From a bacterium (lineage in GTDB: Bacteria > Patescibacteriota > Minisyncoccia > Minisyncoccales > RBG-13-42-11): DNA of 38,528 nucleotides. Below, piece after piece: positions 1 through 4,195 of this stretch. The position numbers were made by a program, and so were the translations under genes. The notes under the pieces are model-generated. The model saw only the letters and a program-made list of their open reading frames with translations. It did no database searches and had not been told where the DNA came from. The stretch lies in NCBI GenBank assembly GCA_030646565.1, contig JAUSLA010000046.1, forward strand, positions 1 through 38,528. Direction: 5' to 3'. Every line of letters starts with the position of its first letter. The first letter of the stretch is position 1.

Positions 1-909
1 AATATTTTTATTGCCAGCTAAACGCTGTGCCAACACTGCATTGCAAGCAGGTATCTGCCGCTCGGCTATCTTTTGACTATTGCCGTGAGAACAGTCAATC
101 ACAAGATGGGGTGATAGTTGAGCTTTTTCTAATTGTATAATTGCGTCTGCAACAGAAGTCGAATCGTAATTCGGCCCGCTATCCCCGCCACGTAAAACCA
201 GGTGGCTATAAGGATTGCCCTCGCTGGTGAAAATCGCTGCTTGCCCGGTTTCAAAATCAATGCCGAGAAAAGAATTTGGATTTTGCGCCCAGACTATCGC
301 ATCTACCGCAGTCTGAATATTGCCGCTTATACTGTTTTTAAAGCCTACGGGCATGCTTAGACCGCTTGCCCTATCTCTATATCCTTGATTCTCAACAGCG
401 CGAGCTCCGACTGCTACCCATGAAACAAGAAGAGCAAGATATTGAGAAGCAATCGAATCAACGAATTCAGTGGCTACAGGGAGACGAAGCTTAGCAAGCT
501 CTTCCAAGAAATCTCGGACCCCATATAAACCATTTTCCATATCGAGATCTTTTAAGTTAGGTCTTTGCATATATCCCGGCCAAGCGAGACGGGTTCTCGA
601 CTTTTCAGGATACGCTCTCATCACAATGAACAACTTTTTATTTAATTTCTGACTTAATTCAGCCAGTCTTTTCGCATATTCCAGACCGGCTTCAGGACGG
701 TCCATTGAGCAAGGCCCGACAATCGCCAGCATTCGAGGATCTTTTCCCGTTAAAATATCAACAATCTGCCGGCGAGAATTTAACACAAAATCTCCCAGCT
801 CTTTGTCTGCCAGAAAGCGTTCCAAAAACTTCTTTGGCGGAACGATTGGAACGATACTTCTAATATTTGAATCGGAAAGTTTGCTCATAGCTCTATGCGT
901 TTGATTCAT
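1..909 (-). CDS. aroG: 3-deoxy-7-phosphoheptulonate (DAHP) synthase, class I-alpha; 3' end runs off the window
   Basis: Not in the ORF track. Manual translation: MNQTHRAMSKLSDSNIRSIVPIVPP...GKDPRMLAIVGPCS...RAYPEKSRTRLAWPG...IGAR...MPVGFKN...HLVLRGG...VIDCSHGNS. AAGGAGGG precedes ATG 909; alternative in-frame ATG at 888. aroF/G/H subtype not resolvable. Confidence 0.92.
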   Translation of the reverse strand, partial: MNQTHRAMSKLSDSNIRSIVPIVPPKKFLERFLADKELGDFVLNSRRQIVDILTGKDPRMLAIVGPCSMDRPEAGLEYAKRLAELSQKLNKKLFIVMRAYPEKSRTRLAWPGYMQRPNLKDLDMENGLYGVRDFLEELAKLRLPVATEFVDSIASQYLALLVSWVAVGARAVENQGYRDRASGLSMPVGFKNSISGNIQTAVDAIVWAQNPNSFLGIDFETGQAAIFTSEGNPYSHLVLRGGDSGPNYDSTSVADAIIQLEKAQLSPHLVIDCSHGNSQKIAERQIPACNAVLAQRLAGNKNI

Positions 910-1127
910 CAGGCTCCCTCCTTCTTTTTTCTAGCATACGCCTTTCTCTGGAATAAGCTAGAAACTGCGGCGTCCATAAGGCCACCTGAAACGTAAATCC
1001 AGATACCATACCACTCCTCCTTTGTTAATGTGCTTTCCTGTTCTGCTCCAAAAGCAGCACAGACCGGAGATTTTAAAATTTTCTCTGGCAAGGAAGCCGA
1101 ATTTATTTCGGCGCCCTTGTCAGGCAA

Positions 1128-1152
1128 CAAAAAACCTCTTTAAGAAAAGAGG
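1128..1152 (-). terminator. Attenuator terminator upstream of aroG
   Basis: Minus strand CCTCTTT-TCTT-AAAGAGG followed by TTTTTTG. Confidence 0.8.
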
Positions 1153-1181
1153 CTGGTCTGCGAAAATTCTTTTTCTTACGA

Positions 1182-1259
1182 TTAATCCATCGTCAAACCA
1201 GCCTCCTTTTTAAAAAAGGTAAAGATAAAATAAAACTTTTTGCTGGCTTGATTTTTCAT
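1182..1259 (-). CDS. Attenuation leader peptide, 25 aa, Phe/Tyr-rich
   Basis: Manual translation MKNQASKKFYFIFTFFKKEAGLTMD*; 5 Phe and 1 Tyr in 8 consecutive codons, upstream of a terminator and DAHP synthase. Confidence 0.8.
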   Translation of the reverse strand: MKNQASKKFYFIFTFFKKEAGLTMD

Positions 1260-1269
1260 AACTGATATT

Positions 1270-1298
1270 AGATTATTATGTTCAAAGCATTCTGTCAA
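1270..1298 (-). promoter_or_regulatory. Putative sigma70 promoter for the leader-aroG transcript
   Basis: TTGACA-17 nt-TAATCT on the minus strand, about 10 nt before the leader ATG. Confidence 0.5.
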
Positions 1299-1303
1299 TA
1301 GTT

Positions 1304-1327
1304 GGGGCGTCCATTGCTGGACGCCCC
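1304..1327. terminator. GC-rich hairpin after the XRE gene
   Basis: GGGGCGTCCA-TTGC-TGGACGCCCC, perfect 10-bp stem just past the stop at 1334; no clear U-tract. Confidence 0.5.
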
Positions 1328-1333
1328 TTGAGA

Positions 1334-1798
1334 CTAAATTTGCTTTGCAGGATCACCTGCTTCGCCCGCTGTTCCTTCGTAATCCTCTACCCTCAACGTG
1401 ACACTTGCCCGAAGCGCATCAAGTATTCGCTGCGCTCGGTCAAGGGTAATGCCGTGGTATTCATTGTGTTCGTCGCGGGAAACCACCGCTTCGCTCACCT
1501 CTAATCTAGCGGCTAATGATCGCTGCGTAATTCCGCTAGCGATTCGCAAAGCAATTAGCAATCGCCCGGCTAGGGGCAAGCGACGTATGACTGGGAATTC
1601 ACGTCGCCGCACCCCCTCATACCAATCAATCTCCTCCGCCAGTTGTGCTTGAAATGAGAGTAGCGGTTCCATCGCTCGCTGTACCTCATCGAGCGCTAGT
1701 CCTACGCTTCTAAGCGCAGACTGTTGCTGTGCTGCAATGCTTCTATTTTGCTCAAGTCGTCGCAGCGCCTCTTCATACTCTGCTTCATTTCGGATCAT
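1334..1798 (-). CDS. XRE-family helix-turn-helix protein (HigA-antitoxin-like)
   Basis: MIRNEAEYEEAL N-terminus and LIALRIASGITQRSLAARLEVSEAVVSRDE HTH; start moved to ATG 1798, which follows AGGAAGGAG. Confidence 0.8.
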   Translation of the reverse strand: MIRNEAEYEEALRRLEQNRSIAAQQQSALRSVGLALDEVQRAMEPLLSFQAQLAEEIDWYEGVRRREFPVIRRLPLAGRLLIALRIASGITQRSLAARLEVSEAVVSRDEHNEYHGITLDRAQRILDALRASVTLRVEDYEGTAGEAGDPAKQI

Positions 1799-1937
1799 GG
1801 TTATTCTCCTTCCTGTTTTTTTTCGAAGAACAATCGCTACAACGCTCCGTAGAGATTGCCAACGCATTGAGCATTGCATATTATACTCGTCATGTCAAAA
1901 CCCCGCGTCCTACATTCTGCGAGAGTCGCTAGCCACC

Positions 1938-3254
1938 TTATTCATTTCTTTCGCTCAAGGTGACTTGCAAAATGATCTCTTCTTTGTTTCTCAAAATTTT
2001 CAGCGGCACTGTGTCTCCGACATTATATTTCATAATAACCTTAGCCAAAGTATTGTCTGCGGTAATTTTCTCTCCGTTAAGCTCTAAAATAATGTCATTT
2101 TCTTTCAGGCCGGCTTTTTGAGCGGCTGAATCAATGGCAATAGCCGGCTCTCCCCCCTCTCCCTTTGTAACCCAGGCGCCGTAATCAACGGACAAATTGT
2201 TGTCTTTTTGAATTTTTTCCGTAATAAGCGTATACCTTACCCCCAAGAAAGGATAAACAATTTTGCCGTAATTCTTTACCTGCTCAATAGCTTTTTTGGC
2301 TTTATTAATTTGAATAGCAAAGCCAATGCTCTGGGCGTCTTCCACCATTGCGGCGTTAACGCCTATAACTTCGCCTTTTAAATTAAGAAGAGGCCCTCCG
2401 GAATTTCCCTTATTGATTGCGGCGTCTGTTTGGATAACATCTTCTAATGTTTCCACCAAACCGCCGCCGGAAGCTGTAATCGTCCTGCCTAATCCAGAAA
2501 TCACCCCGACTGAAATTGTATTTCTAAACTCTCCCAAAGCGTTGCCAATCGCAACAACGGTTTGGCCTATTTGGATTTTATCCGAATCGCCGAGTTTTAC
2601 CACAAGGAAGGGCTTTAAAGAAAATCCTCCCTGCTCATTAACAATTTTTTCCTGGCTGATTTTCAAAACGGCTAAGTCCTGCAAAGGATCTCGGGCTAAA
2701 ACTTTTGCCGGATATTTTTTTCCGTCATTGGTAAAGACAGTGTAATCAGCTTGTTCATCCAGAGCAACGTGTTTGTTGGTTAAAACCATTCCGTCTTCAG
2801 AAATAATGAAGCCGGTTCCTCCGCCAATCTCTTTTTTTTCGGTTCCTTTTTGCCTAAGTTGAGGCGCTTGCAACCGAAAGGACTGGCCGAAAAATTCTTC
2901 AAACACATAATATTGTTCAAAAATTGGCACGTCTTTGGTGATGACAATACTTACCACAGCTGGAGCAACATCTTTGACCACTTTAATTATAGCTTCTTCT
3001 TGAGTGGTTTGGGGCAAATATATTCCCTCGGTAGTCGTGGAATTCCCTAAAATTTCGGGCAGTTTAATGCCTAATTTGACAAGCTCGTCCTTTATTTGCA
3101 GATAAAAAACTCCGCCAGTCAGGGTGCCAGATATAAAACCGGAAACCGAAGAGATAAAAATAATCAGAATAATCAGCCAAAAGGTTTTATTCTGCCAGAA
3201 TTTAGGGAATTTAATCTTGGGAAAATCAAATTTTGGCGATTCATAAATAGACAT
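1938..3254 (-). CDS. htrA: HtrA/DegP-family trypsin-like serine protease with PDZ domain, membrane anchored
   Basis: GTGFII, LTNKHV, DLAVLK, QTDAAINKGNSGGPL motifs; C-terminal PDZ; N-terminal TM. The longer ORF-track start overlaps the neighbouring gene and a repeat. Confidence 0.92.
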   Translation of the reverse strand: MSIYESPKFDFPKIKFPKFWQNKTFWLIILIIFISSVSGFISGTLTGGVFYLQIKDELVKLGIKLPEILGNSTTTEGIYLPQTTQEEAIIKVVKDVAPAVVSIVITKDVPIFEQYYVFEEFFGQSFRLQAPQLRQKGTEKKEIGGGTGFIISEDGMVLTNKHVALDEQADYTVFTNDGKKYPAKVLARDPLQDLAVLKISQEKIVNEQGGFSLKPFLVVKLGDSDKIQIGQTVVAIGNALGEFRNTISVGVISGLGRTITASGGGLVETLEDVIQTDAAINKGNSGGPLLNLKGEVIGVNAAMVEDAQSIGFAIQINKAKKAIEQVKNYGKIVYPFLGVRYTLITEKIQKDNNLSVDYGAWVTKGEGGEPAIAIDSAAQKAGLKENDIILELNGEKITADNTLAKVIMKYNVGDTVPLKILRNKEEIILQVTLSERNE

Positions 3255-3255
3255 A

Positions 3256-3299
3256 GTCAAAGAAATAAATTTCTTCTTCACCCCGCGCTTCGCTTGGGT
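3256..3299 (-). repeat. Two-hairpin dispersed repeat copy abutting the htrA start
   Basis: rc ACCCAAGCGAAGCGCGGGGTGAAGAAGAAATTTATTTCTTTGAC, then T-ATG. Confidence 0.75.
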
Positions 3300-3301
3300 T
3301 T

Positions 3302-4195
3302 TTAACGCTTCAAAATATTCTTTGTTTTTAAAATTACTATTTTCGGGGTAAAAAGTAAAAAAATAAGGATCCAGCTTAAAAATACTATTCCCGACATAAG
3401 ATAAGAAACGATAATCCAAACAAATTGAAATAAAAAATTTGTTTTTTTTGCTTTTTTGTCCCGGCCTTTCAATACTCTCTTCTTTTGATACTGGCCGAAG
3501 TCGTATCTAAAGATATTTATTTTTACATTCCCAAAAAAAATATTTAAAATGTTACAAAAAAAATATTTAAAATTAGTTCTCCACAGGCCTTCTTTTTCAA
3601 ATCTTCTTAAAAACAAAGGCAGTTTGACTCCTTTTAAAAAACCAAATCTGCCAACCTTAGCCGCCCGGCGGACAAAGTCATGGTCTTCGGCTATCTTAAT
3701 GTTTTCGTCAAAACCCCCAACGGCTTGAAAGATTTCCCTTTTAACCAAAATTAAACTGGCGGCATAAGGAAAAACTCCCTGCAGGAATCTGACAGGCCAA
3801 TTATATAAAAGATTATAAAAAAATTGGGGGTGAATAGCTTTGGGCGCCCACTCTATGCCTATGGGTATATGGCCGCAACCGGAAACATCTAAATTTCTAT
3901 CGTTAAATTCTTGCAAGACTTTCTTTAAAAAATTATCGGACAAAAGGGTTTCTGCGTCCAAAAATAAAAATAAATCACCTTGGGCAGCTGCTGCTCCCTG
4001 ATTTCTGCCTTTTGCCGGCAGCCCTCCGTCAACTATTTTACATCCGTATTTTCGGGCTACATCCCTTGTTCTGTCTTTAGAATAGGCGTCTGAAACAACT
4101 ATCTCAAAGTCCTTAAAATTCTGCTTTTTTATGGAGTCAAGCAATAAAGACAGGTACGCTTCTTCGTTTAAGGTTGGAATAATAATACTAAGCAT
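3302..4195 (-). CDS. Glycosyltransferase family 2
   Basis: MLSIIIPTLNEE, DAYSKDRT, GRNQGA, FLFLDAE, GGFDE..EDHDF motifs. Confidence 0.9.
   Translation of the reverse strand: MLSIIIPTLNEEAYLSLLLDSIKKQNFKDFEIVVSDAYSKDRTRDVARKYGCKIVDGGLPAKGRNQGAAAAQGDLFLFLDAETLLSDNFLKKVLQEFNDRNLDVSGCGHIPIGIEWAPKAIHPQFFYNLLYNWPVRFLQGVFPYAASLILVKREIFQAVGGFDENIKIAEDHDFVRRAAKVGRFGFLKGVKLPLFLRRFEKEGLWRTNFKYFFCNILNIFFGNVKINIFRYDFGQYQKKRVLKGRDKKAKKTNFLFQFVWIIVSYLMSGIVFLSWILIFLLFTPKIVILKTKNILKR

Follow-up and report, generated by a model that had tools for sequence, protein, structure and literature searches.

A probable phenylalanine-sensing attenuator upstream of the DAHP synthase gene of a small CPR genome

The window, by which we mean the whole stretch of DNA that was analysed, is the opening 38,528 bases of contig C14 in a 770-kb CPR genome assembled into 74 contigs (93% complete). 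On its minus strand, an Xre-type HTH gene (1879-1334) is followed by a GC-rich hairpin, a TTGACA hexamer, a short leader open reading frame (ORF), a terminator, a spacer and aroG, a type I DAHP synthase gene (PF00793; 1-909) of which codons 1-303 are present before the contig end truncates it. The GC-rich hairpin (1304-1327, minus strand, 9 bp, without a U-tract), read directly from the DNA just 3' of the HTH gene, shows where the preceding unit ends. As a repeated element of the genome it was ruled out, its arms being present only here. Between terminator and aroG start lies a long spacer (910-1128, minus strand; 221 nt from terminator to gene), the fold of which is unremarkable (z = -1.3). 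It contains a second upstream ORF of 38 codons (893-1009, minus strand), with the Shine-Dalgarno sequence AAAGGAGG at a 6-nt spacing, that extends across the strong Shine-Dalgarno sequence and the start of aroG. Neither this ORF nor a 73-codon ORF in the spacer had homologs in our searches.

The DAHP synthase gene belongs to this genome, since Logan contig depth is 49-56 over positions 1-4000 in the probable source run (a groundwater metagenome), a single Logan contig covers 851-2040, taking in aroG, the leader, the HTH gene and part of htrA, and aroG has an unremarkable GC3 for this genome (53rd percentile). In codon usage, aroG ranks at the 10th percentile. The HTH gene beside it stands clearly apart in composition, with a GC of 0.516 and a codon-usage score in the 1st percentile. 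A wastewater run from a second study (X3) contains a relative that is ~92% identical over 668-917 and that departs from the window immediately 5' of the start codon; this run yielded no sequence of at least 90% identity across 939-2356. In the second study, the ~92% identical allele co-occurs, at similar depth, with relatives of the neighbouring HtrA gene.

The leader ORF (MKNQASKKFYFIFTFFKKEAGLTMD; 25 codons plus stop, 1182-1259, minus strand) appears in the ORF list and by direct reading, running from an ATG at 1259-1257 to a TAA at 1184-1182. Its codons 9-16 (F9 Y10 F11 I12 F13 T14 F15 F16; 1212-1235, minus strand), the putative control codons, encode five Phe and one Tyr in eight residues, each Phe being TTT. 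TTT falls at every second codon of this frame; the other two frames hold two Phe codons each, and one of them is interrupted by a stop. The leader peptide matches no Pfam family, and neither the genome nor the 173 loci searched contain a homolog of it. Small ORFs that start with ATG, span 8-60 amino acids and reach at least six aromatic residues per 8-residue window number 25 of the 6732 small ORFs in the genome. Those that we inspected fall inside coding sequence or on the strand opposite to it, among them another Phe-rich small ORF, on contig C15, that was dropped because it runs antisense through an apparent coding region.

No Shine-Dalgarno sequence precedes the leader ATG at 1259; strong ones stand at aroG and at the 38-codon ORF. 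By direct reading, TTGACA (1293-1298, minus strand) is a candidate -35 hexamer and TAATCT (1270-1275, minus strand; 3/6) a candidate weak -10 hexamer. The two are separated by a 17-nt spacer, and as a pair they score too low to be called by the promoter scan, which found no promoter on the minus strand of 800-2000, the spacer before aroG included. If used, this candidate promoter would possibly start the transcript only 2-5 nt before the leader ATG, a 5' untranslated region (UTR) that would require leaderless-type initiation. In another CPR genome (L012), the scan reported an 11/12 promoter with the -10 element ending 7 nt before the leader ATG, and the analogy makes a very short 5' UTR plausible, not proven, for the leader described here.

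Downstream of the Phe codons, two structures are mutually exclusive because both use 1154-1145. The first is an antiterminator in which region 2 (R2; 1194-1209, minus strand), an A/G-rich 5' strand that includes a Shine-Dalgarno-like GGAGG, pairs with region 3 (R3; 1145-1160, minus strand), the 3' strand that overlaps the 5' arm of the terminator. By direct reading, 12 bp (one of them G-U) join GAGGCUGGUUUG (1205-1194) to CAGACCAGCCUC (1160-1149), and in RNAfold the helix reaches 16 bp (1209-1194 with 1160-1145). The second is an intrinsic terminator (1129-1154, minus strand), reported by the terminator scan as a 9-pair hairpin (1154-1133) with a T-rich tail and read directly as CCUCUUU (1152-1146) against AAAGAGG (1141-1135) followed by U6 (1134-1129). 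Its stem is weak, with three G-C among nine pairs, and it lies 51 nt past the leader stop. The leader ORF, the 12-bp pairing with its one G-U, the terminator and the overlap between them are thus all present as the original prediction described them.

A further pairing had escaped that prediction. The 3' arm of the terminator (region 4, R4; AAAGAGGU, 1141-1134) can alternatively pair with region 1 (R1; ACCUUUUU, 1220-1213, minus strand), which coincides with codons T14-F16 of the leader. Because the terminator 3' arm also pairs with R1, the minimum free energy (MFE) fold of the free leader is one long interrupted hairpin, with R1:R4 stacked on R2:R3, that ends at the U-tract. The leader folds at -46.2 kcal/mol (z = -4.8), and none of 200 shuffled sequences folded as well.

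We computed pair probabilities for the transcript 1265-1127 at equilibrium, masking an assumed ribosome footprint that reaches 15 nt upstream and 12 nt downstream of the first A-site nucleotide. In the free RNA, R4:R1 and R2:R3 form with probabilities of 0.98 and 1.00, respectively, and a ribosome at codons 8-10, which include F9 and Y10, gives the same result, with the hairpin touching the U-tract. Codon 11 in the A site is intermediate (P(R4:R1) = 0.68). At codons 12-14, P(R4:R1) is at most 0.05 and P(R4:R3) is 0.06-0.18, with P(R2:R3) at 0.89-0.94; from codon 15 to codon 25, the ribosome covers R2 and P(R4:R3) is 0.97-0.98. With the stop codon in the A site, the RNA divides between R4:R3 (0.50) and R4:R1 (0.48), both of them terminator-like.

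In this equilibrium model, only a stall around F11-T14 would leave the U-tract without an adjoining hairpin, and the antiterminating window, the extent of which depends on the assumed footprint, holds two Phe codons only (F11 and F13). The 12-bp helix alone is not predicted to be antiterminating, because R4 has its second partner in T14-F16. The element is also predicted to sense Phe and not Tyr, since a stall at Y10 does not free the terminator arm. The original prediction had proposed a classical Phe/Tyr attenuator in which stalling at Phe codons frees the antiterminator and translation to the stop masks it. Constrained folding reproduces a stall-dependent switch and retains the Phe half of the proposal near F11-T14; stalls at F9 and Y10 are ineffective in the model and those at F15 and F16 favour the terminator, and the Tyr half is not retained, as a Y10 stall would leave the terminator arm paired. 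Termination upon translation towards the stop is likewise reproduced over codons 15-25, with the stop codon itself giving the mixed, terminator-like state described above.

The E. coli pheL and trpL attenuators combine a Phe- or Trp-rich leader ORF with an antiterminator over the 5' arm of a terminator, and full translation of the leader results in termination. The element in the window resembles pheL-pheA (RF01859) and trpL (RF00513) in overall length and in the order of its elements. Against the Rfam models, it scored 22.8 bits with Phe_leader (gathering score 55; E = 0.07-0.2; model positions 1-125 on 1260-1126) and 17.8 bits with Trp_leader (gathering score 41), and we treat the sub-threshold Phe_leader match, which runs from ATG to U-tract, as a hint only. 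By score, the element stands outside RF01859. It differs from pheL also in that its leader has no Shine-Dalgarno sequence, in that it would control the first enzyme of the pathway instead of pheA, and in its no-translation state, which would be R1:R4 stacked on R2:R3 here and is 1:2 plus 3:4 there.

Several hallmarks of an attenuator are nevertheless found together at the locus: an ORF rich in codons for an end product precedes a biosynthetic gene, a terminator lies between the two, and a helix sequesters the 5' arm of that terminator. Readthrough upon stalling and termination upon full translation were obtained in silico and depend on the footprint. The ribosome-dependent logic of the trpL/pheL type put forward in the original prediction draws support from anatomy, from constrained folding and from the recurrence of the layout described below.

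For this class of gene, an experimental precedent comes from Corynebacterium glutamicum. According to the available portions of three articles (PMC11802643, PMC4046766, PMC7356990), the DAHP synthase gene aroF is preceded there by a leader peptide, aroR, that contains Phe-Tyr-Phe; transcription rises when ribosomes stall on the leader, and does so under Phe limitation and not under Tyr limitation (Neshat et al. 2014). As far as those portions describe it, aroR-aroF shares with the window a short Phe/Tyr leader ORF directly before a type I DAHP synthase gene, and the reported response to Phe and not Tyr would fit the geometry modelled here, in which a Y10 stall is without effect. aroR-aroF comes from another phylum and has a Phe-Tyr-Phe triplet, against five Phe codons here. 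The window further differs in its 221-nt spacer with a second upstream ORF.

Could the arrangement be fortuitous? A T-rich intergenic stretch might simply be open in a Phe-rich frame beside an ordinary terminator that ends the HTH unit or insulates the island, with the promoter of aroG inside the 221-nt spacer. The genome is AT-rich, and chance alone yields 25 comparable ORFs in it, most of them within genes or on the strand opposite to one. Six of these 25 also have a lenient hairpin plus T-run at the right distance, 35-75 nt past the stop (background, 52/342 or 15%). The terminator is by itself not improbable, given that a stricter terminator scan of 800-2000 found one site against 1.1 expected in shuffles. 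The free RNA, a long hairpin with a U-tract, looks like a plain terminator; the leader has neither a Shine-Dalgarno sequence nor a scan-grade promoter; the spacer is long enough that a separate promoter could hide in it; and the hairpin after the HTH gene has no U-tract.

Against this stands the composite pattern, expected ~0.002 times per 400-nt oriented region and found before the only aromatic-pathway gene detected in the genome. The alternation of TTT with other codons is confined to the leader frame, the other frames having two Phe codons each and one of them a stop, and the promoter scan placed no promoter in the spacer. On this evidence and on the comparative counts that follow, we consider a fortuitous arrangement unlikely, and an attenuator remains the reading that we pursue.

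For 155 loci of homologous DAHP synthase genes, at least 400 nt upstream of the gene were available; in 17 of them, those 400 nt contain a sense small ORF in which six or more residues of an 8-residue window are aromatic. In the controls, 2/155 loci had such an ORF on the antisense strand, 0/135 at a far-upstream position and 0/155 within the gene itself (2/445 in total); coincidence does not predict so strong an enrichment. Fifteen of the 17 leaders are followed by a hairpin and U-run 42-69 nt past the stop, as counted with a lenient RNAfold-based finder that has a 15% background in this genome, and the 51 nt in the window falls inside that range, again contrary to a chance origin; the leaders at L077 and L117 have no terminator after them. 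Leader-bearing loci come from Dehalococcoidia, deltaproteobacterial and Pseudomonadota metagenome-assembled genomes (MAGs), metagenome contigs and one CPR genome. These leaders are analogous, not homologous, to the one in the window. On a FastTree tree, the leader label needs at least six changes over well-supported branches, that is, at least six separate origins. No Rfam family other than tRNAs reached its gathering score at any of the 19 leader-bearing loci.

Seventeen analogs (L005, L011, L012, L020, L040, L047, L066, L073, L085, L094, L101, L103, L107, L140, L145, L153 and L165) share with the window an aromatic small ORF, a terminator 42-69 nt past its stop and a downstream gene of the same family. 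One of them, L011, also shares the order of Phe run, AAAAAGGAG and in-frame TTG. The analogs differ in that their leaders have no detectable homology to that of the window, most carry Tyr and Trp codons as well, and most have the terminator next to the gene (2-154 nt away in analog loci, every one of them closer than the 221 nt here); their DAHP synthases share only 39-49% identity with that of the window. Recurrence of the layout at homologous genes is established by these loci, and the device of aromatic leader plus terminator is not unique to this organism.

Equilibrium masking of the 17 analogs with a terminator gave a clear stall-dependent drop at about six (L005, L012, L020, L047, L094 and L107); in the others, the terminator stays at 0.9-1.0. 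The masking test has limited power, because most GC-rich analog terminators form under any mask. A cruder co-transcriptional proxy, in which the RNA is folded without the 3' arm, gave higher pairing of the 5' arm at an aromatic-codon stall than at the stop at most loci; on the window itself it gave 0.95-0.99 in every state, and we assigned it no weight.

The original prediction had also inferred aromatic-amino-acid sensing in a lineage generally regarded as lacking amino-acid biosynthesis and its control, a view of the lineage that holds only in part. DAHP synthase is indeed rare in the phylum: the gene was found in 0/60 relatives and in 11/400 other genomes of the phylum, at 33-44% identity. 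However, three or four of those 11 also have aromatic leaders with terminators: leader and terminator are clear in L005, L011 and L012 and weak in L010, where the RNAfold-based finder reported no terminator. The built-in terminator scan found no site in L005, L011 or L012, the hairpins and U-runs of which are visible by eye and with the RNAfold-based finder. Our literature search yielded no relevant report of attenuators or of a shikimate pathway in CPR.

The gene product matches PF00793 with 171.1 bits (Pfam cut-off 25.5). The ORF is uninterrupted for 303 codons to the contig end, leaving ~45 C-terminal residues absent, and five full-length homologs used as queries against the other contigs found no piece of the missing C-terminus. 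Residues 1-303 keep every column that is invariant across the 12 nearest homologs, and the protein deviates at several near-invariant positions. Identity reaches 53-55% with the best database proteins and 48-49% with the best fetchable loci; a scan of a genome-contig collection with the single protein found no relative, and alignment-based scans of genome and metagenome contigs found nothing above 48-49%. On the FastTree tree, the protein has a branch of 0.59, long beside the median of 0.20, and its nearest clade is a well-supported group of eight metagenome proteins (P0002-P0008 and P0011). aroG and its leader were probably acquired horizontally into this CPR lineage, and an old transfer of the gene with its regulatory region would be the simplest reading.

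Such a history raises the question of whether the switch still serves a purpose. DAHP synthase is the sole aromatic-pathway gene detected in the genome. The 93%-complete bin has no match to chorismate synthase, DHQ synthase, shikimate dehydrogenase, chorismate mutase (CM_2) or prephenate dehydratase, and for shikimate kinase only a match below the cut-off. A donor's Phe attenuator, transferred with aroG, might therefore now be orphaned and do no useful regulatory work, as the apparent lack of a pathway, the absence of the gene from all 60 relatives, the outlying composition of the adjacent HTH gene, the long branch and the departures at near-invariant positions would all lead one to expect. 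Against this, the 303 codons are open and the columns invariant in the nearest homologs are kept, GC3 has ameliorated to the host value, and leader, pairings and terminator are all intact. The ~92% identical allele lies in a second study beside relatives of the HtrA gene at similar depth, and an operon may continue past the contig end, because the contig stops inside aroG. We regard an idle relic as quite unlikely, and still favour a working attenuator.

A different effector might in principle operate the same terminator and antiterminator, with an RNA-binding protein, an uncharged tRNA or a small ligand as the switch and the ORF irrelevant. Consistent with such a switch are the leader's lack of a Shine-Dalgarno sequence, a weak PyrR-site match over the leader region (18.1 bits; gathering score 54) and the presence elsewhere in the genome of one T-box-like element, its sole such match (C45:35757-35986, 37.5 bits, below the cut-off). 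The leader region itself matches no Rfam family at gathering score, 850-1400 contains no T-box (RF00230) even at E <= 10, and the R2:R3 helix has neither the bulge nor the conserved loop of a known sensor. A different effector also leaves the in-frame Phe run and its recurrence at homologous genes unexplained, and we judge it very improbable.

We therefore favour, with reasonable though incomplete confidence, a ribosome-mediated leader-peptide transcription attenuator through which the supply of charged tRNA-Phe would control transcription of the DAHP synthase gene; this reading is best supported because anatomy, footprint-constrained folding and recurrence at homologous DAHP synthase genes converge on it. 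The sequence of events that we infer, from promoter and leader translation to stalling and regulation in vivo, would be as follows. RNA polymerase would start just 5' of the leader ORF, and R1 to R4 would compete for partners in the emerging transcript. If no ribosome engages, R2:R3 and R1:R4 would stack into the long hairpin at the U-tract and transcription would stop. If Phe is ample, a ribosome would clear the Phe run and cover R2, R3:R4 would form, and transcription would again terminate. If charged tRNA-Phe is scarce, the ribosome would stall with F11-T14 in the A site, covering R1 and leaving R2 free; R2:R3 would then form, R4 would be without a partner, and polymerase would read through into aroG. 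In the folding model, the element would thereby add to classical attenuator logic a built-in state in which no translation means stop.

The mechanism at this locus is most likely a textbook one, an ordinary type of switch in an unusual host. If the switch works, a very reduced and probably host-dependent bacterium would sense its own charged tRNA-Phe pool and regulate entry into the aromatic pathway, which, if true, bears on the real metabolic dependence of CPR organisms. A more ambitious picture is that a 0.77-Mb CPR bacterium keeps a functional, Phe-tuned, nearly leaderless attenuator on a solitary DAHP synthase, that the organism produces DAHP or a derivative of it under regulation, as its half of an aromatic pathway divided with a partner cell, and that aromatic attenuators with short 5' UTRs form a general, uncatalogued class across CPR and several phyla; we offer this whole as speculation and think it doubtful. 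Experimental documentation of such leaders comes, as far as the available portions of the literature extend, from Corynebacterium only. Aromatic leaders with terminators precede type I DAHP synthase genes across many phyla (17/155 loci) and, with none of them in Rfam, point to a widespread regulatory class.

In the window leader and in those of two other CPR genomes (L005 and L012), the ORF starts about 7-10 nt past a -10-like hexamer and lacks a Shine-Dalgarno (SD) sequence (L012, 1152-1190; window, 1259-1298). Because these leader ORFs have no SD and lie so close behind the hexamer, their sequence suggests leaderless or near-leaderless translation, with a promoter ahead of the ORF backed by a promoter scan in L012 only. 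In the window leader (1194-1210, minus strand) and that of a further CPR genome, L011 (1259-1285), AAAAAGGAG lies past the run of Phe codons, with an in-frame TTG 5 nt further on; together the two resemble an SD-dependent internal start. This putative start would put ribosomes on region 2, the 5' strand of the antiterminator, although AAAAAGGAG may instead be merely the A-rich complement of U-rich codons.

The spacer between terminator and aroG also contains reading frames. A 38-codon upstream ORF (893-1009, minus strand), preceded by a strong SD (AAAGGAGG, 6-nt spacing), begins in the spacer and overruns the SD and start codon of aroG. A second frame (1130-909, minus strand) ends in a TGA whose A is the A of the aroG ATG. 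Searches of the genome and 173 loci found no homologues of either spacer ORF; translational coupling to aroG, or interference with it, is possible.

Diverged alleles of the DAHP synthase gene, ~90-94% identical and at lower depth, were present in the probable source run X1 (window 140-790) and in X3, a wastewater run from another study (window 668-917), and no variant of at least 90% identity covering the leader and spacer was found in either run. Farther on, summed contig depth at 2011-2144 was 122 vs ~50, a twofold increase, and two long Logan contigs end at 2040-2090, within the 3' region of htrA; this stretch may be a repeat or sequence common to other organisms.

Upstream of DAHP synthase at other loci, four leader peptides (L073, L140, L153 and L165) resemble one another at the C-terminus, where the aromatic stretch gives way to G-x-P-V/G-L/V-R and then the stop. 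This likeness may point to a leader family conserved among deltaproteobacteria-like organisms. Tandem pairs of terminator-like hairpins separate aromatic leader from DAHP synthase at L047, L066 and L140. Two DAHP synthase genes (L004 and L013) lie in tandem on contig C13 of G141, another genome of the same phylum, and at L006 and L009 the gene follows a putative shikimate-dehydrogenase gene, judged by eye, and has no leader. Elsewhere in the window's own genome, a T-box match (C45:35757-35986, minus strand, locus L174; 37.5 bits, E = 2.6e-7) falls below the gathering score of 93.

Adjoining the window leader is a gene for an Xre-type HTH protein (1334-1879, minus strand) of atypical composition: its GC content is 0.516, and among 375 long ORFs its codon-usage score ranks at the 1st percentile. 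Because this gene is a compositional outlier, the sequence suggests that aroG, the leader and the HTH gene lie on an acquired island downstream of htrA.
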